Shown here: piece by piece, positions 3,801-41,991 of the stretch
How the letters are laid out: each line of letters begins with the position of its first letter
How positions within the stretch are numbered: position 1 is the stretch's first letter
Sequence record: NC_042046.1
DNA from: Escherichia phage C119
DNA length: 47,319 nt
Reading direction: 5' to 3' (one strand)
Made by a program: the position numbers and the translations under genes
The notes under the pieces: model-generated
What the model saw: only the letters and a program-made list of their open reading frames with translations
Database searches by the model: none
Told to the model about the DNA's origin: nothing

Positions 3801-4331
3801 ATGATTAAGGTAAAAGACATAATTGATCTTATAAATGTTGATAGTGAAAGTGGGGTGATAACATGGAAGCTCAGGGATTCAGCGAGGCCTCAGTGGAATG
3901 CAAGGTTTGCCGGAAAGAGGGCAGGTAACGAGTTCCAGGTTAGAACTGGTGGAAAGTACAGAAGAATAAGGTTTACTGTTAACGGAGAGACGGCTACATT
4001 ATTGGAGCATAGGATGATCTGGGAATTTGTTAATGGTGAAATACCTGATGGGATGGAGATAGATCACATAGACAAAGACTCAACGAACAACTCAATATCA
4101 AACCTTAGGGTTTGCAACAGAGCTCAGAATAGCTCAAACAAGGATAGGCATGCTGACAATACATCTGGGTATAAAGGTGTATCATACTTTAAGCAAACCG
4201 ATAAGTTCAGGGCGAGAATAATGCATAATGGTAACGACATGCATATAGGTTACTTCGATACAGCTGAAGGCGCTCACCGGGCCTACATGTTAAAGCAGGC
4301 AGAGTTGTGCGGTGAGTTTGCTAGAGGGTAG
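3801..4331 (+). CDS. HNH homing endonuclease with AP2-like DNA-binding domain (copy 1)
   Basis: ATG 3801 after GGAGGGG RBS; motifs NGEIPDGMEIDHIDKD...NLRVCNRAQN (HNH) and SGYKGVSYFKQTDKFRARI (AP2-like); paralogous to ORFs at 21437 and 31791; free-standing between capsid and neck genes. Confidence 0.8.
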   Translation: MIKVKDIIDLINVDSESGVITWKLRDSARPQWNARFAGKRAGNEFQVRTGGKYRRIRFTVNGETATLLEHRMIWEFVNGEIPDGMEIDHIDKDSTNNSISNLRVCNRAQNSSNKDRHADNTSGYKGVSYFKQTDKFRARIMHNGNDMHIGYFDTAEGAHRAYMLKQAELCGEFARG

Positions 4332-7609: not shown

Positions 7610-7633
7610 CCTCCCTTTGTGGAGGTTTTTTTA
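7609..7633 (+). terminator. Hairpin plus T-tract between chaperone and tape measure genes
   Basis: cctccctttgtggagg followed by T7. Confidence 0.5.
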
Positions 7634-7643
7634 TGGAGGTTAC

Positions 7644-10600
7644 ATGGCAGAATTTGCAGGTATCACACTTGGCGTTGACGTTCGCCAGGTTGACCAGGGC
7701 ACAAAGTCCCTGCAAGAATTTAAACGTGCCAATGAACAGGCGGCAGCTGGAGTTAGCGAGTTCGTTAATGCTGAGCTGGTTGCGAAGAATCAGGCTCGCG
7801 ACACTGCAAGGTATCTTTCTGAGCAGAGAAGTGCTTTTCAGTCGCTTCAGTCTGCAATTGATCCAACAGCTTCAAAATTGCGAAAACTTCAAGATGCAGC
7901 AAGTTCTCTTGATAAGGCCTTCTCCGCAGGGGTTGTTCCAGAGGCTGAGTTTTACAGGCTTGGTGAAGCATTAGAAACGCAAACAAATAGGTTAATAAGG
8001 TCTAGGTCAGCATTAACTGAGGAGGGTAGGGCGGCTATAGAAGCTGCAAAAAATAAAGAGTCCGCTGAGAGGCAAGCGCAATCATTTATTAGGTCGCTTC
8101 AAGCGCAGGCTGATGCAGCGACATTAAGTAGGGATGAGTTCTTAAAGTTAAGGGCGGCACAGCTTGGAGTTAGCGATCAGGCAGCACCAATAATAGATAG
8201 AATAACACAGGCATCAAGTAACAATACTAACGCTATAGCAAATCAAAGTAGGGCGTTTCAGGCGGCTGGGATATCGGCAGGTCAGTACAATCAGGCCTTA
8301 AGGTTCCTTCCTGTACAGATCAATGATATCACCAGCTCGATTGCTAACGGTATGCCTTTATTTATGGTGCTTACCCAGCAAATACCGCAGATTACAGATT
8401 CATTTGGTGGATTTTCAAATACATTATCAGCTGCGCAAGGTGCAGTTATAGATTATGTATCATCAATAGGAGAGCTGAGAAGTTCATTTGCTGATGTTAA
8501 GACTCTTGGTGATGAGGCTATCTTAAGGTTTGGTCGTGCTGCAACTATATTTGGTGGCGCGATAGTTGCTTCATTAGCTGTTCTTGGTAAAGCCGCTTAC
8601 GACTCATTTATTGAGGTTAGGCAACTTAATAACGCAATAATTGAAACTGGAAGGTCGTCGACTTTATCAGTTGCCGCTATCAAGGATTACGCTGATCAGC
8701 TAAATGAAACATCAAGGGCAACAAAAGGTTCTATTGGTGACATTTACCAGTCGCTAGTATCAAACGGAAGGCTTACTGTTAGTCAGATTAACTTAATCGC
8801 TAAGTCTGTTGCTAACCTTTCAGCTGTTAGTTCAAGGTCTGCGGAATCAATAATATCTGACTTTGATAAGATAGCAAAAGATCCAGTTAAGGGGCTGATA
8901 GAGTTAGATAAGCAATTTAACTTTCTTAGCGAAGGGCAGTTGACCCTAGTTAACAACCTAAAAGAAACGGAAGGGCAAACAGCAGCAGTAACAGCAGCTT
9001 TAGAAATATTTGCAGCTAGAAATGAGTCAGTTACAAAGCAGATTGAAGGCTCGCTTACACCTCTTGAATTGGCTTGGGGCGATTTCCGTAAGTTCGTTTC
9101 AGACACATGGGATGCTATAGGTGACAGGACTATAGGAGCTCTAAACCTATTTACTGACGTTATAGCTGCGACTATTGAGCGAATAAGACTGATAATTGGC
9201 ACTGGCGACAAGCTAATAAATGATTTCGTAATACGCGGAATAGAGGCGTTACAAAAGATACCAGGAGCATCTGGCGTTGGTAATGGAATAGCCGAACAAC
9301 TAAGGAAGGATAATGACGCAATAGAAAAGGAAAACATAAGGCTAGCTAAATCTATCGCTGATAGGGATGCAAGGGTTCGCAGGGGCGAGACTGGTTACTT
9401 GAGTGTTGGAGAGGGTTCAGAAAGTCAAACTGGAACTTCTGATAGAGATTCAGAATCAAGAAGAAAGGCTTTGGCCGATGAGATTAAAGCAATTGAGGAG
9501 AGAAGTAAAAAGACAAAATCTGGAGCAAAAGAAGAGAGGGATTTGACTATAAGTTATGAGTCTGGCGTTCTAGCTCTTCAGGCTCAGCTTAAGGTTCTTC
9601 AGGAGCACCGCCAGATTAGTGATGTTATCAGTAACGAACGCAAGCAGCTTTTTGCGGAGGAAGCTAAGTTTGCAATCCTTAATGAAAGGCTTGCAGACGG
9701 AACCATCACAAAGCAACAGCGATCATTACTGTTGCAGCAGGATAAAATCTTAGGACTTGCTCGCGAGAAGGCTGAGATTGGCGACCAGATTGTGCTGCAA
9801 GAAAGGGCCAATAAACTTCTTGATGACAACATCAAGAAGACTCGGCAGATTAACGCTGAAGCGGCATCAATTAGTGTTGGAGCAGGATTATCTCAGCGCG
9901 AAGCGGAAAGGCGGCGTGAGTTGGCGGCGCTAGAAGCCCAGCAAATTTCTAAAGGTGGCTCCGTAGATGACACTGACTTCCAGGCTTTACTTCAGGCTCG
10001 TCAGAATTTCTACAATCAGGAAGATGCATTACGTGGTAACTGGCTGGCTGGCGTTAAATCTGCGTTTGCTGAGACGGCTGATGAATTGGCAAACTTTAAT
10101 CAGATTGGTTCCGAGCTAGCCATGAGTGCCTTTAACGGATTGACTGACCAGATAACAAACCTGGTAACTACTGGAGAAGCTAGCTTCCGTGAGTTTACCG
10201 CATCGATTCTGAAGCAGATTGCACGCATTGCAACGCAGCTACTTTTAATTAAGGCGATTGAATCAACCATCTCCAGTTTTGGCGGTAGTGGTGGTGCAAT
10301 TGGCTCTATTGGTAGCGCATTTGGTTTCGCTTCTGGCGGTTATACTGGAAACGGTGGTAAGTACGAGCCAGCTGGCACGGTGCATAAAGGTGAATTCGTC
10401 TTTACGAAGGAGGCAACCTCAAGGATTGGCGTTGATAACCTTTATAAGTTAATGCGCGGATACGCAAATGGTGGAGTGGTTGGTGCTGGTCCTGGCTATG
10501 CGACTGGCGGGCTTGTTGGTGGAAGTAACGTTAATGTTGGTGGAGTGAATGTTACCGTTCAGACAGGTCTTGGCGGTGGTGGCGGTAATGACGCTAAACA

Positions 10601-10697
10601 GTTAGAATCTGGTATCAGGGTTATCATCGCGGAAGAGATTACTCAGTCCTTCCAGCAGGGCGGAACGGCTTACCAGTTCTTGCGAGGTTATAGTTAA
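7644..10697 (+). CDS. Tail tape measure protein
   Basis: About 1017 aa, long alpha-helical Ala/Gln/Glu-rich protein with Gly-rich C-terminal region, downstream of the chaperone pair; ATG 7644 after GGAGG (ORF track starts at an alternative TTG 7617). Confidence 0.85.
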   Translation: MAEFAGITLGVDVRQVDQGTKSLQEFKRANEQAAAGVSEFVNAELVAKNQARDTARYLSEQRSAFQSLQSAIDPTASKLRKLQDAASSLDKAFSAGVVPEAEFYRLGEALETQTNRLIRSRSALTEEGRAAIEAAKNKESAERQAQSFIRSLQAQADAATLSRDEFLKLRAAQLGVSDQAAPIIDRITQASSNNTNAIANQSRAFQAAGISAGQYNQALRFLPVQINDITSSIANGMPLFMVLTQQIPQITDSFGGFSNTLSAAQGAVIDYVSSIGELRSSFADVKTLGDEAILRFGRAATIFGGAIVASLAVLGKAAYDSFIEVRQLNNAIIETGRSSTLSVAAIKDYADQLNETSRATKGSIGDIYQSLVSNGRLTVSQINLIAKSVANLSAVSSRSAESIISDFDKIAKDPVKGLIELDKQFNFLSEGQLTLVNNLKETEGQTAAVTAALEIFAARNESVTKQIEGSLTPLELAWGDFRKFVSDTWDAIGDRTIGALNLFTDVIAATIERIRLIIGTGDKLINDFVIRGIEALQKIPGASGVGNGIAEQLRKDNDAIEKENIRLAKSIADRDARVRRGETGYLSVGEGSESQTGTSDRDSESRRKALADEIKAIEERSKKTKSGAKEERDLTISYESGVLALQAQLKVLQEHRQISDVISNERKQLFAEEAKFAILNERLADGTITKQQRSLLLQQDKILGLAREKAEIGDQIVLQERANKLLDDNIKKTRQINAEAASISVGAGLSQREAERRRELAALEAQQISKGGSVDDTDFQALLQARQNFYNQEDALRGNWLAGVKSAFAETADELANFNQIGSELAMSAFNGLTDQITNLVTTGEASFREFTASILKQIARIATQLLLIKAIESTISSFGGSGGAIGSIGSAFGFASGGYTGNGGKYEPAGTVHKGEFVFTKEATSRIGVDNLYKLMRGYANGGVVGAGPGYATGGLVGGSNVNVGGVNVTVQTGLGGGGGNDAKQLESGIRVIIAEEITQSFQQGGTAYQFLRGYS

Positions 10698-13509: not shown

Positions 13510-16500
13510 ATGGCACAAATGGTTAAACAAACAACGAGGTTATATGATATGGCCGATTTGCCAAAGATTTATGGAAGCAAGGGTGGTAGCAAGAAGCCGC
13601 ACACACCTGTAGAGCAAGAAGATAACCTGATTTCACTAAACAAGATTAAGGTGCTACTGGCTGTAGCTGATGGAGAGGTTGATTCTAGTTTCTCGCTCAA
13701 GGATGTTTACCTTGCTGACGTTCCGGTGCAAAACCAGGATAACTCATTCAACTATGAAGGTGTTACGGCAGAGTTTAGGTCTGGTACTCAGTCGCAGGAT
13801 TACATCGCAGGACTAGATGGCGCAGCTTCAGAGATTCAGGTTAGTCGTGAAATCAATAATGACACACCTTATATCATCGCAGTCAACAACAGTCAGCTAT
13901 CAGCAATTCGAGTCAAGCTGTTCTGGCCTCGACTCGTTAAGCAAGAAGAGAATGGAGATTTAAATGGCACAACATGTGAATATGCAATCGATTTATCAGT
14001 TAATGGCTCAGCGTACACTGAGTATATCAGAGGCGTGGCTAACGGTAAAACTACAACAGGTTACGACCGCAGTATCAGGGTTAACTTACCAGCCGAGTTT
14101 AGCAGCGCTCTTGTTCGTATTAGGAAGTTAACGCCAGACTCAACAAATAGCACCCTGGTTAACGGGATGCAGATCACAACCTATCAGGAAGTAATCGATG
14201 CTAAATTCCGCTACCCTCTTACGGCACTTGTTTACGTGGAGTTCAGTTCTGACCTGTTCCCTAACGGGATCCCAACTATAGCCATTAAGAAAAAGTGGAA
14301 ACTTATCCGCGTACCGACAAACTACAATCCAGAGACAAGGGCTTATAGCGGCACATGGAATGGAACTTTTAAAATGGCATGGTCTGACAACCCGGCCTGG
14401 GTTTTATATGATCTGGTGGTTAGTCAGCGCTACGGATTGGATCAGCGAGAGCTTGGTGTAGAGATTGATAAGTGGGGTCTGTATGAAGCAGCGCAATTCT
14501 GCGACCAGATGGTTCCTGATGGTAAGGGTGGAATGGAGCCGCGATATACTTGTAACGTTGTCATTCAGCAGAAAGTGGAAGCGTATCAGCTTATTCGTGA
14601 CATCTGTTCTATCTTCCGCGGTTTAACCTTCTATGATGGTGAGCAAATCGGGATTGTTGTAGACAGGCCGCGCCAGCCAAGCTATGTGTTCACTAATGAT
14701 AACGTTGTTGATGGATTGTTTAACAGGACATTCTCTAGCGACAAGAGCCTTTACACGACAGCCAACGTTCAGTTTGATGACGAGCAGAACAACTACCAGC
14801 AGGATGTCGAGCCAGTATTCGACTTAGAAGCAACACGCCGATTTGGTTACAACCCTGTAGACTTGACTGCAATTGGCTGCGTAAGGCGAAGCGAGGCTAA
14901 CCGTCGCGGGCGTTGGTTGCTGAAAACAAACCTTCGCAGTGAAACGGTAACGTTCACAACTGGCCTCGAAGGCATGATTCCTATGATTGGTGATGTAATT
15001 GCCGTTAATGACCAGGCTTGGTCAAGCAACTACACATTAAACCTTTCGGGTCGAATTGTTGAAGCTACAGGTTTGCAGGTGTTCGTGCCATTCGCTATTG
15101 ATGCTGACCCTGGCGACAGGATTTTAATCAACAAGCCAGATGGGAGCCCAGAGTACAGGACTATCGCTTCAGTATCTGCCGATAAGTTGACGCTTGAACT
15201 GAATACAGCATTCAGCTTCACACCTCAGCCGGATACGGTATTTGCAATCGACAAGCAGAATCTGGCGTTGCAGCAATACGTTGTGACAGGAATTCAAAAA
15301 GCAAACACGGACGGCGAGGATTCATTCCAGTACAGCATCACTGCGGTGCAGTATGACCCGAACAAGTATGACGAGATTGACTATGGTGTGAATATTGACG
15401 ACAGGCCAACAAGTATCGTTGACCCTGACAGGATTTTACCACCTGAAAATATCACCGTTACTAGTTACAGCAAGGTAGTTCAGGGCTTAAGCGTTGAGAC
15501 GATGGTTATTGGTTACGACAAGGTGCAGTATGCGAAAACATACAACGTACAGTGGCGCAAGAATAACGGCAACTGGATTAACGTACCTGAGACAGCTAAT
15601 ACCGAGGTTGATATTGAAGGCATTTACGCTGGCATCTACGACGTCAGGGTTCGCGCCGTAACTGACCAGAAATCAGTGTCGGCATGGTCAGATATCACGA
15701 CAGTTAGCCTGACTGGCAAGATTGGGGAACCTTCGGAGCCGCCTGTAATTACGGCTTCTGATGATGAGGTTTTCGGGATTAGGGTTAAGTGGGGCTTCCC
15801 TACTGACTCAGCTGATACCGCTTACACCGAGCTTCAGCAGGTTCCTGATAATGGTGACGGAACATATACACCGGAGAACGCGTCACTGCTTACGCTGGTT
15901 CCGTATCCTCAATACGAATATTGGCACACCACTCTACCAGCAGGTAACGTGAGGTGGTACAGGGCCAGGATTATTGACAGGATAGGTAACGTATCTCCGT
16001 GGACTGATTTTGTCAGAGGTATGGCATCCGATGATGTAAGTGCGATCATTGGTGACATCAAGGTTGATATCGAAAACTCTGATGGTTACAAGTATCTTCT
16101 CCAGAACGCCATTGATGCAAATACTGACATCCAGAATCAGGCCGAAGCTATAATCGAGAACGCCCTGGCAAATGATACTGACGTACGCGTTATGACAAAG
16201 GAGAATCTTAACAGGAAGGCGGAATATCGCCAGGCAGTAAGTTTGATTGCTGATGAAACTCAGGCCCGTGTGGACGCTCTCACGCAGCTTAAAGCGCAGA
16301 TTGATGATGAGATTGTTGGTCAGATTACGACAATTGAAACCGCACTTGCTACGGAGACCGAAGCCAGGGCTACAGCTGATACTCAATTAAGCTCAAGGCT
16401 TGGTGATAACGAGGCGGCTTTGAATCAGAAGCTTGACTCTTATGCCACGGTCGAAGGTGTTGGTGTTCAGTACGGCGTTAAGCTCGGCCTGAAGTACAAT

Positions 16501-16935
16501 GGGGTTGAGTACGGCGCTGGAATGAGCATGGAGTTAACTGGTAGTGGTGGAAATGTTCGTAGTCAGTTTATTTTTGATGCTAACAGGTTCGCAATCAGTA
16601 ACGGCATTAGTTCTGGTTCCGGTCAGTGGTCGCTACCTTTCGTTGTGGAGAATAACCAGGTGTTCATTCAGAGCGCGGTGATTCAGGATGGTTCAATTAC
16701 TAACGCGAAGATTGGTAACAGGATTCAATCAAACAACTATGTTGCTGGTAGTGCTGGTTGGGCAATTGATAAATCTGGTTTTGCTGAGTTAAGTAACGCT
16801 ACCGTTCGCGGTAGTTTGTACGCTAACAATGGTAACTTCGCGTTTAACGGAACCAACAATACTGTCGTAATAAACAATAACGGCATAACTGTTAATTTAC
16901 CAAATGGAGGTAGGGTAGTGGTTGGAGTATGGTAA
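13510..16935 (+). CDS. Host specificity / central tail fibre protein (lambda gpJ-like)
   Basis: 1141 aa, last gene of the tail-tip run, followed by a bidirectional terminator. Confidence 0.85.
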   Translation: MAQMVKQTTRLYDMADLPKIYGSKGGSKKPHTPVEQEDNLISLNKIKVLLAVADGEVDSSFSLKDVYLADVPVQNQDNSFNYEGVTAEFRSGTQSQDYIAGLDGAASEIQVSREINNDTPYIIAVNNSQLSAIRVKLFWPRLVKQEENGDLNGTTCEYAIDLSVNGSAYTEYIRGVANGKTTTGYDRSIRVNLPAEFSSALVRIRKLTPDSTNSTLVNGMQITTYQEVIDAKFRYPLTALVYVEFSSDLFPNGIPTIAIKKKWKLIRVPTNYNPETRAYSGTWNGTFKMAWSDNPAWVLYDLVVSQRYGLDQRELGVEIDKWGLYEAAQFCDQMVPDGKGGMEPRYTCNVVIQQKVEAYQLIRDICSIFRGLTFYDGEQIGIVVDRPRQPSYVFTNDNVVDGLFNRTFSSDKSLYTTANVQFDDEQNNYQQDVEPVFDLEATRRFGYNPVDLTAIGCVRRSEANRRGRWLLKTNLRSETVTFTTGLEGMIPMIGDVIAVNDQAWSSNYTLNLSGRIVEATGLQVFVPFAIDADPGDRILINKPDGSPEYRTIASVSADKLTLELNTAFSFTPQPDTVFAIDKQNLALQQYVVTGIQKANTDGEDSFQYSITAVQYDPNKYDEIDYGVNIDDRPTSIVDPDRILPPENITVTSYSKVVQGLSVETMVIGYDKVQYAKTYNVQWRKNNGNWINVPETANTEVDIEGIYAGIYDVRVRAVTDQKSVSAWSDITTVSLTGKIGEPSEPPVITASDDEVFGIRVKWGFPTDSADTAYTELQQVPDNGDGTYTPENASLLTLVPYPQYEYWHTTLPAGNVRWYRARIIDRIGNVSPWTDFVRGMASDDVSAIIGDIKVDIENSDGYKYLLQNAIDANTDIQNQAEAIIENALANDTDVRVMTKENLNRKAEYRQAVSLIADETQARVDALTQLKAQIDDEIVGQITTIETALATETEARATADTQLSSRLGDNEAALNQKLDSYATVEGVGVQYGVKLGLKYNGVEYGAGMSMELTGSGGNVRSQFIFDANRFAISNGISSGSGQWSLPFVVENNQVFIQSAVIQDGSITNAKIGNRIQSNNYVAGSAGWAIDKSGFAELSNATVRGSLYANNGNFAFNGTNNTVVINNNGITVNLPNGGRVVVGVW

Positions 16936-21436: not shown

Positions 21437-21931
21437 ATGAATTGGGACAAATACTTTGATATCGTGGATGGTAAGCTGGTGTGGAAGTATAGAGAAGAGA
21501 TGCGGCCACAGTGGAACGCAAGATATCAAGGAAAAGAGGCAGGAGCGATAAGGAATGGATACCTTCAGACCGAAATCAATGGGAAGTGTTATTTTTGCCA
21601 TAGAATTATGTGGGAAATGATTAACGGTCGTATACCGGATGGAATGTGCATAGACCACTTGAATCACAAGAGAGATGATAACAGGATTGAAAATCTTAGA
21701 GTTGTATCTCATCAAGATAATTGCAAGAATCAGAGCTTGCGATTGAAAAATAAATCAGGAGTATCGGGAGTTTACTGGAATAAGAAAGCAAATAAGTGGC
21801 TAGCTCAAATAAGTATAAAAGGAAAAAGAAAGCATGTTGGTTTCTTTTTATCAATATCTGACGCTGAGAATGCGATAAAACAAGCAAGAAAAGAAAATCT
21901 TTACCACGAAAATCATTGCTCTAATATTTGA
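21437..21931 (+). CDS. HNH homing endonuclease with AP2-like domain (copy 2)
   Basis: NGRIPDGMCIDHLNHKRDDNRIENLRVVSHQDNCKNQ (HNH) and SGVSGVYWNKKANKWLAQI (AP2-like); N-terminus MNWDKYFDIVDGKLVW parallels copy 3. Confidence 0.8.
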   Translation: MNWDKYFDIVDGKLVWKYREEMRPQWNARYQGKEAGAIRNGYLQTEINGKCYFCHRIMWEMINGRIPDGMCIDHLNHKRDDNRIENLRVVSHQDNCKNQSLRLKNKSGVSGVYWNKKANKWLAQISIKGKRKHVGFFLSISDAENAIKQARKENLYHENHCSNI

Positions 21932-26746: not shown

Positions 26747-28690
26747 ATGGAAAACCGATTGAAAACAATACAAAAACAGATTGAAGAATTGGGCGAAGAT
26801 AAGATTAAAGAGATTCAAACTAAATTCACCTCTTCTAACTGTATGGTTCCGTATAGCTATCAGTGTGTTATGTACAATGAGATTGCAAAGCGCATTAGTC
26901 GCTATGAGCATCCATTTATCGCAATGGCTTCAGTTTCTGCTGGTAAGACTCTGGTTTTTGGTATGGTTGCTAAGCGTTGCTCTGAGCTTGGCTTGCCTAT
27001 GCTTGTTCTTGCTCGTCAGGCAGAGCTGGTTAGCCAGAATGCTTCTGAGATTTCTGATTACGGGGTTCCTAACTCCATTTATTGCTCTGGGCTTGGAATA
27101 AAATCATCTTATTTCCCTGTGGTGGTTGGCTCTGAGGGCACAGTAGTTGGCGGGCTTAAGAAGTCACTTGGCGATTTCTGTCCTGCGGTAGTTGCTATTG
27201 ATGAGTGTCACCATATTGATGACCAGGACATAGCGGAGGCAATTGATAACAATGAGACTGCGCAACAGGCATCAGATAAGGGGCGTAGCCAGTATACGGT
27301 CATCATCCTGACTTTAATGGAGCGCTGCCGTGCTAAGTATGGCAAGAATCTTCGTATCTTTGGACTGACTGGTTCTCCTTTCCGTGGAACTACGCCAATA
27401 GTTGTTGAAAACAAAAAGGAGTTGGGATTTTGGCGTGAGACGGTCACAAATATCGATACAAACTACCTGGTAGAGTTCGGTTCCGTGGTTCCGACAAACT
27501 TTGGTGCTACTGATGGCGTTGGTTACGACCTGTCAGAGTTTGATGCATCATCTGAAGATGGTGTTCAGGATTACACTAAAGCCCAGCTTGAAGCCATGGA
27601 TAAAAAGATTCAGGCATCTGGAACAATGACAGCGGAGATAATGAAGAAAGTATGGCTTGCCGCGAAAGACAGGAATGGAGTTCTGGTAACATGCGCAGGT
27701 GAGCGCCATTGCCACGAAGCCGCAAGTTACCTTCCTGAAGGTGAAAAGTTCTGCATTATAACTGGAAAGACTGGCGAGAAGCAGCGCAAGGAGTTGCTTG
27801 ATAAGTGCTTTAGCGGGGAGATTAAATATTGCTTTCAGGTTCAGGCGCTAACCACTGGCGTAAATGTGCCTACATGGGATACAAGCGTTATTCTGCGTAA
27901 GATCGGTAGCCTTACGCTCCTGGTTCAGCTACTTGGTCGAGGAATGCGTAAGCTTAAGAAGCTCCATGAAGATAAAGGAATGGTAAAGAATGACCATTTG
28001 GTACTGGACTTCGCAGGAACGATGGACTCTATGGCATCATTGTACTTCAATCCAATTCTTGAGCAGGCTCAATATCAGCTACGAAAGAGTAATGGCAAGG
28101 AGACTAAGCAGTGTCCAGTATGCGGAACAGAGAACAGCTTCTTTGCTCGACGTTGCATGCATATTGATGAGAATAATAATCGCTGCGAATATTTCTGGGT
28201 TAGTCGCACATGTGAAGACCAGAAAGACCCACGAACCGGAAAGGTTATCGTTAAAGGCTGTGGAGTTCAGAATGACGTTGCAGCTAAGATTTGTAGGGGT
28301 TGCGATTGCACTTTGCTTGATCCAAATCTCAACTTAAGCGGCAAACATTACCGCAAGAACGACTGGTTTGATGTTGTTGACTTTAAGGTTGGGCTAACAA
28401 AGAACCAATCAGGAATCATCTACAACTACATCCTTGATGATGGCATGGGTGGGACATTCAAAGCTCATGAGGTTTTCTTTGTAGAGTCTGGCCATCGAGT
28501 ATGTAAAACGCTCTGGTTGAACAATGGAATTAAAGGTCACGTAGTCGACATGAACGCTAAGCGATATATGGCTGCATATCGCAATGCTCGCAAGATTATG
28601 GAGTATGCGCAGTACATCCATGCCCCTAAGAGGGTAACTCACCGCAAGACCGCTAAAGGTGGCGATAATATTGCTAATAAGGAGTTCTAA
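26747..28690 (+). CDS. Superfamily 2 (DEAD/DEAH-type) helicase with C-terminal Cys-rich zinc-ribbon region
   Basis: Walker A SAGKTLVFG, DEAH-like VAIDECHHID, C-terminal CPVCGT...RRCMH...CRGCDC; ATG 26747 (ORF track begins at 26687). Confidence 0.75.
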   Translation: MENRLKTIQKQIEELGEDKIKEIQTKFTSSNCMVPYSYQCVMYNEIAKRISRYEHPFIAMASVSAGKTLVFGMVAKRCSELGLPMLVLARQAELVSQNASEISDYGVPNSIYCSGLGIKSSYFPVVVGSEGTVVGGLKKSLGDFCPAVVAIDECHHIDDQDIAEAIDNNETAQQASDKGRSQYTVIILTLMERCRAKYGKNLRIFGLTGSPFRGTTPIVVENKKELGFWRETVTNIDTNYLVEFGSVVPTNFGATDGVGYDLSEFDASSEDGVQDYTKAQLEAMDKKIQASGTMTAEIMKKVWLAAKDRNGVLVTCAGERHCHEAASYLPEGEKFCIITGKTGEKQRKELLDKCFSGEIKYCFQVQALTTGVNVPTWDTSVILRKIGSLTLLVQLLGRGMRKLKKLHEDKGMVKNDHLVLDFAGTMDSMASLYFNPILEQAQYQLRKSNGKETKQCPVCGTENSFFARRCMHIDENNNRCEYFWVSRTCEDQKDPRTGKVIVKGCGVQNDVAAKICRGCDCTLLDPNLNLSGKHYRKNDWFDVVDFKVGLTKNQSGIIYNYILDDGMGGTFKAHEVFFVESGHRVCKTLWLNNGIKGHVVDMNAKRYMAAYRNARKIMEYAQYIHAPKRVTHRKTAKGGDNIANKEF

Positions 28691-30183: not shown

Positions 30184-30437
30184 ATTTACCTGGTCTGGAT
30201 TTTGATGAGAGTAAGTATCAGGTTGTGTTTTTTGGTGAGAAGCCTTATCGGAAGATTCCTTTCTCTGAGTGGATTCCTCCGGACTACCTCGATGTACTGG
30301 TGCAAATTGAGATTGGTAAGGCTGAGTTGATGTACTACTCACCTGGCTGCAATATGATGATGCCTAGTGAGTATTCTCCAGCAATTGCTGCGCTTGAAAC
30401 TGAGTTTCTTGATTACTGGCTAAAAGAAGTTAAATAG
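30180..30437 (+). CDS. Hypothetical protein (85 aa)
   Basis: ATGA-coupled ORF; stop followed directly by a cassette motif. Confidence 0.5.
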   Translation: MNLPGLDFDESKYQVVFFGEKPYRKIPFSEWIPPDYLDVLVQIEIGKAELMYYSPGCNMMMPSEYSPAIAALETEFLDYWLKEVK

Positions 30438-30505
30438 CACTTTTTGTTAAAACACATCGCCATGGATGGCGTATAGTGTGTTCATCGAAACGAGAGACGA
30501 TTCAG

Positions 30506-30574
30506 ATGAAAACATTACTACCGTTGATGGCTATGCCATTAACCTTTATAATCATGTACTTCATAATCTGCTAA
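30506..30574 (+). CDS. Possible 22-aa hydrophobic micropeptide (MKTLLPLMAMPLTFIIMYFIIC)
   Basis: First ATG after the cassette leader ttcatcgaaacgagagacgattcag, the position other cassette-driven genes occupy. Confidence 0.3.
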   Translation: MKTLLPLMAMPLTFIIMYFIIC

Positions 30575-30588
30575 CAGGAAATTAAATA

Positions 30589-31725
30589 ATGTCTATAGCT
30601 AAAATCACCAACGAAGAGTTAAAGCAAGAACTGGCTAACGGTATGACTAACAAGGCAATCGCAGAGAAGTACGGTATGAATATTCGTAACGTAGAGCTGC
30701 GTCGCAGCAAGTTGGCTAAGGCTGGGGATGGTCACGGTCGCGATGTGAGTAACCTAATTCCTCAGGGCTACATGGTTAAAGGTGTATCTAGCCTTGTTGA
30801 TAATGATGGCAATGTGAAGTTGCAATGGGTTAAGTCCTCTATTGATGCAGAGAAGCTTGAGGAGATGATGAATCAAGCGCGAGAGGCATTCTCTAGCGAG
30901 CTACCAAAAGAAAAAGCAGTTAAATCTGAAGGTCTGAATTTTGATGAAGATACTTTAGCTATGTATCCAGTATTTGACCTTCACATTGGCGCAATGGCCC
31001 ACAAGCATGAGTGCGGAGAAAACTACGACACAGCAACGGCAGAGAAAGTAATGAACGATTATTTTGACTACGCCGTACAGAAATCTCCAAATTCAAAGAA
31101 TGCTGTACTAGTGCTAGGAGGTGATCTGCTTCATTATGATTCTTTGGAAGCCAAAACTCCAGCCAGTGGTCACATCCTGGACAGTGACAGTCGCTACGCC
31201 AAGATTGTTTATGTTTGCATTCGAGCGGTTCGCCGCGCAATTCGAAACATGCTTAGCAAACATGAAAACGTAGAGGTTAAAGTTATATCTGGTAATCATG
31301 ATGAAAGTGGTATGGTTTGGTTGCGGGCTGCGCTTGCTGCATTTTATGAGGAAGAGCCACGCGTTAGTATTGATGTTAGTCCCGCGGCAATGATGGTAAC
31401 TAAGTTTGGTTCTACAATGCTTGGTTTCACTCACGGGCATCAAATGCGTAAAGCTGATACTCGCCTTTCGGTTATGGCTACTGACTGGCGACGTGACTTT
31501 GGTTTAAGTGATTATGTATACACCCACTCAGGCCACTGGCATTCACAGAAGATTACAGAGACAAATCTTGGTATTGATGAGGTTCATGGTCAGCTTGGTT
31601 CACCAGATGCATATAGTGCGAATGGCGGGTGGCGCTCACAAAGGCAGGCTGCGGTAATCATATATCATAAAGAGTTTGGTGAGGTTGGTCGTTTTATCTG
31701 TCGCCCAGAAATGTTTAATAAATAG
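30589..31725 (+). CDS. Calcineurin-like metallophosphoesterase with N-terminal HTH-like segment
   Basis: Phosphoesterase motifs DLHIG, GGDLLHYD, GNHDE, GH.H (FTHGHQ); N-terminal EELKQELANGMTNKAIAEKYGMNIRNVELRRSKL resembles an HTH. Confidence 0.6.
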   Translation: MSIAKITNEELKQELANGMTNKAIAEKYGMNIRNVELRRSKLAKAGDGHGRDVSNLIPQGYMVKGVSSLVDNDGNVKLQWVKSSIDAEKLEEMMNQAREAFSSELPKEKAVKSEGLNFDEDTLAMYPVFDLHIGAMAHKHECGENYDTATAEKVMNDYFDYAVQKSPNSKNAVLVLGGDLLHYDSLEAKTPASGHILDSDSRYAKIVYVCIRAVRRAIRNMLSKHENVEVKVISGNHDESGMVWLRAALAAFYEEEPRVSIDVSPAAMMVTKFGSTMLGFTHGHQMRKADTRLSVMATDWRRDFGLSDYVYTHSGHWHSQKITETNLGIDEVHGQLGSPDAYSANGGWRSQRQAAVIIYHKEFGEVGRFICRPEMFNK

Positions 31726-31743
31726 CACAAATAGTCAAGAAAC

Positions 31744-31770
31744 TACCCGCGAAAGCGGGTGTTTTTGTTT
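31744..31770 (+). terminator. Hairpin plus T-tract upstream of HNH copy 3
   Basis: acccgcgaaagcgggt followed by gtttttgttt. Confidence 0.55.
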
Positions 31771-31790
31771 CACACAACTGAGGAGGTAAT

Positions 31791-32282
31791 ATGAATTGGA
31801 ATGATTTTCTCGAATATAGAGATGGAAAGCTTTACTGGACAGATCCACACTCAACAAAATTTAAGCCAGGGGATGAGGCTGGATGTAGGCATCATAGGGG
31901 TTATCATTATATAAGGAGATATAAAACCACGATGTCAAGGCATAGGATAGTATGGACAATGTTTAATGGAGAGATACCGGAAGGCATGGAGATTGATCAC
32001 ATAGACCATGACGTTGAGAATGATCGGATTGAAAACCTAAGAATGGTTACAAGGAGGCAGAACAATCAAAACAAAAAGCTAGATGAAAGAAATACTAGCG
32101 GACATGTTGGGGTTAGTTGGAACAAGAAGGCAAACAAATGGAGAGCAATGATAGGTATAAAGGGTAATGACGGGAAGCGGAAAACGGTATATGTTTATTA
32201 TGGTGACTCTTTCGACGACGCGGTATTGGCAAGGAAGAAAGCTGAATCTGAATACTCATTTCATGAAAATCACGGAAAATAG
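31791..32282 (+). CDS. HNH homing endonuclease with AP2-like domain (copy 3)
   Basis: NGEIPEGMEIDHIDHDVENDRIENLRMVTRRQNNQNK and SGHVGVSWNKKANKWRAMI; GAGGAGG RBS; stop TAG is the TAG of a cassette motif. Confidence 0.8.
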   Translation: MNWNDFLEYRDGKLYWTDPHSTKFKPGDEAGCRHHRGYHYIRRYKTTMSRHRIVWTMFNGEIPEGMEIDHIDHDVENDRIENLRMVTRRQNNQNKKLDERNTSGHVGVSWNKKANKWRAMIGIKGNDGKRKTVYVYYGDSFDDAVLARKKAESEYSFHENHGK

Positions 32283-41751: not shown

Positions 41752-41991
41752 ATGTTCGGACTTACTCAACCACAATTTAATGCAGTTCGCGCCCAAGCTA
41801 AGAAACTTAACGAGGCGGTGGATAAGCTGACAAGCAAGCAGAAGCAGGATAATGACATCATGAAGGCGATTATCTGTGAGTTTCATAGCCCAGTCAGTAC
41901 AATCATCGAGAAGATGAAGTTTGTTTGGGTTGCAGGCTATCTTGCTGGTCGCGTAGGTAAGCGTGAAGATGGGGAGCAGATTTATGACTAA
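41752..41991 (+). CDS. Hypothetical protein (79 aa)
   Basis: ORF-track ORF. Confidence 0.5.
   Translation: MFGLTQPQFNAVRAQAKKLNEAVDKLTSKQKQDNDIMKAIICEFHSPVSTIIEKMKFVWVAGYLAGRVGKREDGEQIYD

Follow-up and report, generated by a model that had tools for sequence, protein, structure and literature searches.

Small inner-membrane proteins of about 20-50 residues are well known in Escherichia coli (KdpF, AcrZ, MgtS), together with the Ibs-type hydrophobic toxins. Calcineurin-like metallophosphoesterases (MPEs) form a superfamily recognized by five metal-binding/catalytic motifs and a beta-alpha-beta-alpha-beta sandwich fold. Among phages, the MPE Gp48 of the cluster A mycobacteriophages is an early expressed phosphodiesterase that damages host genomic DNA and blunts defense-gene expression (PMC12287305). 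For T1-like phages, host-genome degradation has been presented as an open question (PMC11447400). Here, we analyzed a locus of Escherichia phage C119 (NC_042046.1), a Rogunavirus genome (T1-like, Drexlerviridae), in which a membrane micro-protein and an MPE seem to be encoded side by side: an unannotated micro-gene of 22 codons plus stop (30506..30574) and an MPE gene of 378 amino acids (aa) with an N-terminal helix-turn-helix (HTH; 30589..31725). Both lie on the + strand, as do the other features of this locus described below; the window is the whole analyzed stretch of 47,319 nucleotides (nt).

We read the locus as a coupled two-gene unit that encodes a micro-protein of the membrane together with a DNA phosphodiesterase resembling Mre11 and tethered by an HTH, and give this reading a probability of about 0.5. 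The first gene would be translated into a 22-residue, single-helix hydrophobic micro-protein with a basic N-terminus, most likely inserted in the inner membrane. In the product of the second gene, the LuxR/GerE-type HTH would bind DNA, and the Mre11/SbcD-like binuclear-metal phosphodiesterase domain would cut nucleic-acid phosphodiester bonds. It would most likely be a DNA exo- or endonuclease, involved in DNA-end processing or in host-DNA breakdown that feeds nucleotide salvage. Both genes would share one mRNA and be translationally coupled, since the stop codon of the micro-gene and the MPE start are 1-14 nt apart, with the stop often inside the MPE Shine-Dalgarno sequence. In this Rogunavirus, the pair has its own promoter-like leader –a copy of that with the 21-nt repeat of the family– and its own terminator. 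We infer DNA as the substrate because of the DNA-metabolism context of the gene, the mycobacteriophage MPE precedent, and the open question of host-genome degradation in T1-like phages.

The micro-open reading frame (micro-ORF) encodes MKTLLPLMAMPLTFIIMYFIIC, for which one hydrophobic helix is predicted and whose second residue is basic, and ranked second in hydrophobicity among the 171 small ATG ORFs in the window. In a survey of about 92 MPE-upstream regions of related phages, 76 loci carried a hydrophobic ORF of 22-26 codons that ended 1-14 nt 5' of the MPE start, with 38 distinct nucleotide sequences among them; in one lineage, it reached 29 codons if counted from the first ATG. Two more loci, of the TLS type, kept the micro-ORF intact (MRYIYVIIFPPVIAWVIVYFLVMGLS) with a 670-nt HNH gene inserted between it and the MPE gene. 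With tblastn, we retrieved micro-ORF records from Rogunavirus (27, all intact), Tunavirus (62, all intact), and Webervirus (348, 347 of them full length). The peptide was MKLYFAVVLTPLISFSVMYFIIM in T1 and MRYIAILFTAILFTIAIINYAIQLG in Webervirus, and followed the pattern M[KR]xLxLVALxPLFSFTILYFIVMN in Braunvirinae, MM01, and Phagiculus.

The same micro-ORF/MPE architecture was found in T1, Braunvirinae, Tempevirinae, Webervirus, and others. The distance from the micro-ORF stop to the MPE start stayed within 1-14 nt in all lineages, and the stop often overlapped the MPE Shine-Dalgarno sequence as TAAGGA. At the other end, an ATGA joined the micro-ORF start codon to the stop codon of the preceding gene in T1, Braunvirinae, MM01, Phagiculus, and TLS. 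Outside Drexlerviridae, the micro-ORF was absent from the MPE loci examined.

One account of so short an ORF would be that an AT-rich spacer happens to contain an open frame. By base composition, 22 codons remain open with a probability of about 0.26, which is not beyond chance on its own, equally hydrophobic chance ORFs exist elsewhere in the window, and none of the annotations inspected calls the micro-ORF. Its significance comes from its conservation in related phages, not from the frame being open. Across 11 lineage representatives with a median nucleotide identity of 45%, the frame was open in all; the chance of 11 open lineages is roughly 0.26^11, about 4e-7, if lineages are independent. 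By this comparison, the chance-frame account is effectively refuted.

Several features indicate that the peptide itself is what is kept. The length of the micro-ORF varied across lineages (22, 23, 24, 25, and 26 codons) by whole codons only, and all lineages retained the basic second residue, a central Pro, a near-invariant Tyr, and the hydrophobicity. The in-frame ratio of nonsynonymous to synonymous polymorphism (pN/pS) was 0.20 in Webervirus, 0.41 in Braunvirinae, and 0.39 in Rogunavirus, vs. about 0.7-7.8 off frame in these three larger clades. In Webervirus, the variable sites fell on codon positions 1/2/3 as 8/1/9. Shine-Dalgarno pairing was strong (-6 to -12 kcal/mol) in several lineages (Webervirus at -12.3, L084, L040, and others) and weak in lineages where the ATGA overlap gives coupling. 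Thus, comparative sequence analysis establishes both the conservation of the micro-gene and selection at the peptide level, and the micro-ORF seems to be a genuine gene for a small membrane protein that the phage family has retained. We propose it as a candidate for a new small gene of the whole family, well supported by the comparisons. No ribosome profiling (Ribo-seq) or proteome data on T1-like phages were located.

Some observations weigh against this reading of the micro-gene. In the two smaller clades that had sufficient changes for a comparison, pN/pS did not discriminate: in the T1 clade it was 0.66 in frame vs. 0.48 in one off-frame, and in the MWRL clade 0.42 in frame vs. 0.62 off frame. 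In C119 itself, the micro-ORF Shine-Dalgarno sequence (GAGAGA, 30492-30497) is weak, at -3.0 kcal/mol. A sigma-70-like TTGATG-17-TATAAT (30524-30552, 10/12 matches) inside the micro-gene could start an MPE-only transcript. A Sauletekiovirus-like lineage and a 54-kb clade keep the MPE gene without the micro-ORF, and one IMG/VR contig (L071, about 1413-1487) has a nonsense change at codon 3 (TAC -> TAA). Judging from these genomes, the micro-gene is dispensable in some lineages. The L071 change could be a sequencing error or a natural knockout, and the TTGATG-17-TATAAT overlaps a stretch annotated as a promoter in AHP42. Promoter-like sites were not enriched in the region (9 found vs. 13.7 expected).

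The loss of the micro-ORF in some lineages that kept the MPE gene would also fit a translated ORF whose peptide has no function, a leader whose translation controls how well the MPE message is translated or how stable it is, through termination-reinitiation or by unmasking the Shine-Dalgarno sequence. A stop that in every lineage is placed within 1-14 nt of the MPE start, often in TAAGGA, suits such a leader, and so does a 9-bp hairpin inside the Rogunavirus micro-gene (GTTGATGGC-TAT-GCCATTAAC, 30523..30543). This hairpin is Rogunavirus-specific and showed one compensatory change, from an A-T to a C-G pair, in AHP42 and e4/1c, with two residues changed conservatively; other lineages had no equivalent. 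Conserved RNA structure as the cause of micro-ORF conservation was rejected after folding 13 lineage representatives, which showed no common fold (z-scores -1.1 to +2.5), and the lack of an RNA structure common to lineages speaks against the leader as well. A pure coupling device would not be expected to hold hydrophobicity, basic residue 2, central Pro, and Tyr at about 45% identity or to yield in-frame pN/pS of 0.2-0.4, nor would the TLS-type ORF stay intact with 670 nt of HNH gene before the MPE. We therefore regard a functionless peptide as improbable.

The original prediction had left three options for the micro-ORF: a translated leader, a micro-membrane protein, or noise. Noise is discarded by the conservation, and a leader role retains partial plausibility from the position of the stop. 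The micro-membrane protein is the best supported of the three because of the peptide-level selection, the in-frame indels, the hydrophobicity held at about 45% identity, and the survival of the ORF despite its separation from the MPE gene by HNH.

At the annotation level, the micro-gene has escaped detection. It was absent from every record inspected in RefSeq and GenBank, its peptides had no match in Pfam, PHROGs, or NCBIfam, and a collection of 15 billion proteins, which may have a length floor, did not contain them as exact sequences. What is annotated at these loci can mislead (L003 587-706, L004 587-706, L006 1787-3037, L011 1788-2564 and 2528-3037, L098 866-1537). A 39-aa ORF annotated in AHP24, AHS24, and Opt-79 (30466-30585 in the window) was rejected as spurious: it starts in the promoter-like leader, exists only in Rogunavirus, and has a pN/pS of about 2. 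Similarly, we rejected as spurious the 5' extension of the MPE gene annotated across the micro-ORF in e4/1c and JK06. The JK06 annotation also splits the MPE into two coding sequences, and in TLS the HNH gene endY is annotated about 120 nt too long, so that it covers the micro-ORF.

The second gene starts behind a Shine-Dalgarno AGGAA (30576..30580), 1 nt past the micro-gene stop (TAA, 30572-30574). Its product belongs to phrog_704, with a match along its full length (E 1.7e-155; residues 4-376 align with positions 2-389 of the 390-position profile), and is the orthologue of T1 ST16, with 76% identity. The catalytic domain spans residues about 119-376 (30943..31716) and holds all five motifs: DLH130-132 (D130-x-H132), GDLLHYD178-184, GNHDE235-239, the motif-IV His in T-H-G-H (H282), and GHWH315-318. 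So, the full calcineurin-like set of the original prediction was found, with H282 in addition. Together with the sandwich fold, these five motifs place the protein in the calcineurin-like MPE superfamily. The Pfam Metallophos model (PF00149) scored below its gathering cut-off (19.6 vs. 21.5 bits) and was reached at E <=0.01 in just 8/41 relatives. The metal-ligand motif residues were invariant in an alignment of 41 sequences, down to 26% identity, which argues for catalysis being under selection. Based on this invariance, the MPE is almost certainly enzymatically active.

The N-terminal segment, proposed from the start to resemble an HTH, was also upheld. The AlphaFold2 model (mean pLDDT, the predicted local distance difference test, of 79.5) placed three helices at residues 8-16, 21-28, and 32-44. 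The single sequence matched GerE (PF00196) below its gathering cut-off (14.1 vs. 23.5 bits, E 0.038), and the family profile matched GerE, NarL, FixJ, VraR, and RhlR chains at E 0.02-0.1. With hhalign, the N-terminal profile aligned to the GerE HTH with a probability of 94% over 47 columns and in the canonical register, and distant relatives reached Sigma70_r4_2, HTH_8, and HTH_1 at E 5e-7 to 3e-8. Because of these helices and matches, we assign the N-terminus (residues about 4-50, 30598..30738) to the LuxR/GerE type (sigma-70 region 4-like), as predicted by profiles and model. A linker module of a beta-hairpin (61-85) and a helix (87-102) follows (30769..30894) in the AlphaFold2 secondary structure; it is conserved in the 41-sequence alignment, with W80 invariant and K82 near-invariant. 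The domain make-up and the intact active-site residues are shown by these analyses.

The combination of HTH and MPE had been considered unusual for a phage protein, and this view did not hold. Using tblastn, we found 2,015 phage records with an MPE homologue, 1,946 at >=80% coverage, in groups that include Drexlerviridae, Guernseyvirinae, and Vibrio, Campylobacter, and roseobacter phages. A profile search gave 6,157 representatives at 50% identity, 1,909 of them at E <1e-30, and among the best 150 of the 6,157 nearly all aligned from the N-terminus. These searches indicate that the combination is common among phages and defines a very large family. A published survey recorded the gene as persistent in Drexlerviridae (508/522, PMC13164509). 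The MPE thus belongs to a known, widespread family and is a core gene of Drexlerviridae, and the label 'DNA repair exonuclease' that some records give it goes back only to a fold-level resemblance.

That resemblance points to Mre11. Foldseek of the predicted model vs. the PDB had archaeal Mre11 on top (E about 1e-7), with LpxH, Rv0805, Vps29, and PolD DP1 close behind. In the PDB, the catalytic-domain profile reached no more than eight sequences; each is an Mre11/SbcD protein, aligned via the common GDLxH motif. Two results count against an Mre11 identity. The similarity to Mre11/SbcD was not significant at the sequence level (best PDB profile matches at E 0.27-0.74), in line with the lack of any match at E <=1 to the SbcD/Mre11 models of NCBIfam or Pfam and with a single-protein search of the PDB that returned only noise. 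And no SbcC/Rad50 partner was found in the window, in a PHROGs scan covering ten of the 12 other ORFs >=280 aa, nor is one annotated in T1 or KP36. The ten scanned ORFs matched families of tail, head, helicase, primase, RecE, terminase, portal, or membrane proteins; the two outside the scan (7617-10697 and 13510-16935) are presumed tail proteins. Judging by fold and motifs, the MPE would work most like an Mre11/SbcD- or DP1-type nuclease, yet we place it outside Mre11/SbcD because it has no significant sequence match and no partner.

The genomic surroundings of the MPE gene are those of DNA metabolism. Over 2.1 kb around the locus, C119 shares 98.5% identity with AKS96, AHP42, and Rogue1, Escherichia phages of Rogunavirus whose records name the 378-aa gene 'hypothetical protein', 'phosphoesterase', or –in RefSeq– 'DNA repair exonuclease'. 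Helicase and VRR-NUC genes lie upstream of the MPE gene, and related Rogunavirus records have an annotated terminator 3' of it, some with an HNH endonuclease gene thereafter. In Webervirus KP36, a polynucleotide kinase and a deoxynucleoside monophosphate (dNMP) kinase follow the MPE directly, ahead of the next annotated terminator, and in JK06 a polynucleotide kinase is also 3' of it. For these downstream kinases the survey can be cited as well (PMC13164509). Further away, a Vibrio phage has a single-stranded DNA-binding protein (SSB) gene upstream of its homologue, and in a lambdoid Microbulbifer prophage the homologue has NinG upstream and holin and terminase downstream.

This same context can be read differently. 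The MPE could hydrolyze another phosphoester: 2',3'-cyclic or 3'-phosphate ends, for end healing in concert with the neighboring polynucleotide kinase, cyclic-nucleotide immune signals, or phosphoproteins. The kinase directly 3' of the MPE in KP36 and JK06 agrees with the first of these, and the Microbulbifer prophage carries its MPE in a nin-like region after NinG. The nin region of lambda carries the MPE phosphatase NinI, which acts on phosphoproteins. However, the adjacency to the kinase is lineage-specific (in T1, Pnk is 36 kb distant), a small-molecule phosphodiesterase would have no need of the DNA-binding-type HTH fused to nearly every member, and the sole sequence matches in the PDB were to Mre11/SbcD. 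We consider another phosphoester possible, if rather doubtful, and retain the DNA-phosphodiesterase reading. The T1 genetic 'gene 2.5', linked to host-DNA degradation (Roberts & Drexler 1981, cited in PMC11447400), is probably not ST16, judging by a rough comparison of the gene order.

At the regulatory level, the pair is framed by repeats. The leader contains a copy of the Drexlerviridae 21-nt repeat (aaATAGCACnnnTTGnTAAAA, 30433..30451), within which the preceding gene (85 aa) has its TAG stop codon (30435-30437). A -10-like TATAGT (30472..30477) lies 22 nt downstream of TTGTTA (30444-30449), and the conserved ATCGAAAC (30484-30491) is 3' of TATAGT, before the micro-gene Shine-Dalgarno sequence. 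This layout of repeat, TATAGT, ATCGAAAC, GAGAG-type Shine-Dalgarno, and first ATG recurs at other copies, and the micro-ORF ATG takes the place of the first-gene ATG behind them. The micro-ORF thus does sit in the first-gene slot behind the leader, as originally noted. We infer that the leader acts as a promoter. The repeat keeps a constant distance of 22-23 nt to a TATAGT/TATATT hexamer 3' of it, which centers its dyad, TAGCA-N5-TGCTA, near -42; such a layout points to a promoter that depends on an activator more than to a plain sigma-70 one. Because the leader copy is directly 5' of the micro-gene in Rogunavirus, the micro-gene is the first gene of its cassette there. In T1 and KP36, the repeat is further upstream, before ST17 or gp61, so the micro-gene lies inside the operon as one of its coupled genes.

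On the 3' side, a degenerate 21-nt repeat overlies the MPE stop (TAG, 31723-31725) and is followed by an intrinsic terminator (31721..31771, stem 31744-31761 plus a T-run). The terminator is annotated in AHP42, and T1 ST16 ends similarly, with a repeat at 41955 and a terminator at 41980. The window has 19 copies of the repeat vs. 1.5 expected (e.g. 11079, 18241-, 20674, 29062, 29747, 32278, 37489-, 38324-, 40000, 41116), and the same consensus has 25 copies in T1 and 17 in KP36. A study of TLS has described the repeat and mentions it for T1, Rtp, and Rogue1 too, as of unknown function (PMC11447400). The TAG stop of the preceding gene is often inside it (AA-TAG-CAC), as at 30435-30437 and 31723-31725, and behind several copies a terminator hairpin takes the place of the -10 hexamer (3729, 31721, 36553(-), 37507(-)). 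Since repeats occur both over stop codons and before terminators, they seem to mark cassette boundaries and not only promoters.

A LuxR-type HTH and dyad-symmetric repeats at a fixed distance from a -10-like hexamer raise the question of whether the HTH-MPE works chiefly as a transcription factor on the repeats, either a class-II-type activator or a 'stoperator' repressor. Both repeats and MPE gene are Drexlerviridae-wide, the binder of the repeat is unknown (PMC11447400), and the gene precedes the lysis and late genes, a common place for late regulators (PMC13164509). Against this, the MPE of Jerseyvirus ZCSE9 has a closely similar HTH in a genome with no copy of the Drexlerviridae repeat within 3 mismatches, the invariant catalytic residues would be superfluous for a pure regulator, and another conserved HTH regulator (T1 ST23, AHP42 gp36) is an equally good candidate. 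Repeat binding by the HTH-MPE is unlikely on these grounds, and a mainly regulatory role very much so; a DNA-tethered phosphodiesterase is still our preferred reading. ZCSE9 (L100) has its own 18-nt palindromic repeat (TATAATAGAGTACTATTA), with four early-region copies at 27044, 31370, 36916, and 38011.

Apart from the pair, we recorded some features of its surroundings. An HNH homing-endonuclease gene (31791-32282) is inserted directly after the MPE terminator, at a site where Rogue1 and UDF157lw have no HNH, and two HNH paralogue segments lie elsewhere in the window (about 4007-4079 and 21598-21670). HNH genes also occur at varying sites around the MPE in T1, TLS, MM01, and Jerseyvirus. The tail fiber gene (1246-2691; 481 aa, phrog_5073) has long collagen-like Gly-X-Y repeats at 1576-2237, with a 9-nt periodic GGTCCN.

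The micro-gene was missed or mis-framed by the inspected annotation in >430 deposited genomes, including the model phage T1 and many Klebsiella phages of Webervirus, and a simple annotation fix is possible. The large gene is a core gene of Drexlerviridae and several other phage groups, and a limited literature search found neither an experimental study of any family member nor a tested function. The pair offers an entry to two questions: how T1-like phages degrade host DNA, and what role the tiny ORFs between 21-nt repeats have. A bolder version, which we hold to be unlikely as it stands, is that micro-protein and HTH-MPE form a two-part system specific to T1-like phages. For example, the helix could recruit or gate the nuclease at the inner membrane, the site of phage DNA entry and nucleoid attachment, and so drive host-chromosome breakdown; or it could disarm a membrane-bound host factor. 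If this were true, the micro-gene would open a new class of micro-membrane proteins in phages, spread over the whole family and overlooked in hundreds of deposited genomes, many of them from Klebsiella phages (Webervirus).

Compared with known systems, the MPE shares with Mre11/SbcD –T4 gp47 included– the five motifs, among them GDLxH and GNHD. It differs in that Mre11/SbcD has a Rad50/SbcC ATPase partner, which was not found in the C119 genome scan, and C-terminal Rad50-binding helices. The C119 protein terminates directly after the catalytic core and has instead the N-terminal HTH and beta-hairpin module. The order of an N-terminal helical part, a beta-rich module, and an MPE is similar to that of archaeal PolD DP1, an MPE 3'-5' proofreading exonuclease, and of the eukaryotic polymerase B-subunits. 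There is a likeness by label too, since some phage relatives are auto-annotated as 'DNA polymerase II small subunit', and gp66 of TLS was named 'proof-reading exonuclease' (PMC11447400). However, T1-like phages (T1, KP36) encode no DNA polymerase to serve, DP1 has no sequence-level match to the C119 MPE, and the beta module of C119 is a hairpin and not a demonstrated OB fold.

Gp48 is, by its description, likewise a phage MPE with all five motifs, and by analogy it may serve as a working precedent for the role proposed here; it differs in having no reported N-terminal HTH and in its phage group and host. Finally, the putative micro-protein has no sequence match to any Pfam, PHROGs, or NCBIfam family and, unlike the small inner-membrane proteins named above, is phage-encoded and Drexlerviridae-specific. 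It resembles those proteins in its size, its single hydrophobic helix, its basic N-terminus, and its encoding by a short ORF tightly linked to another gene.

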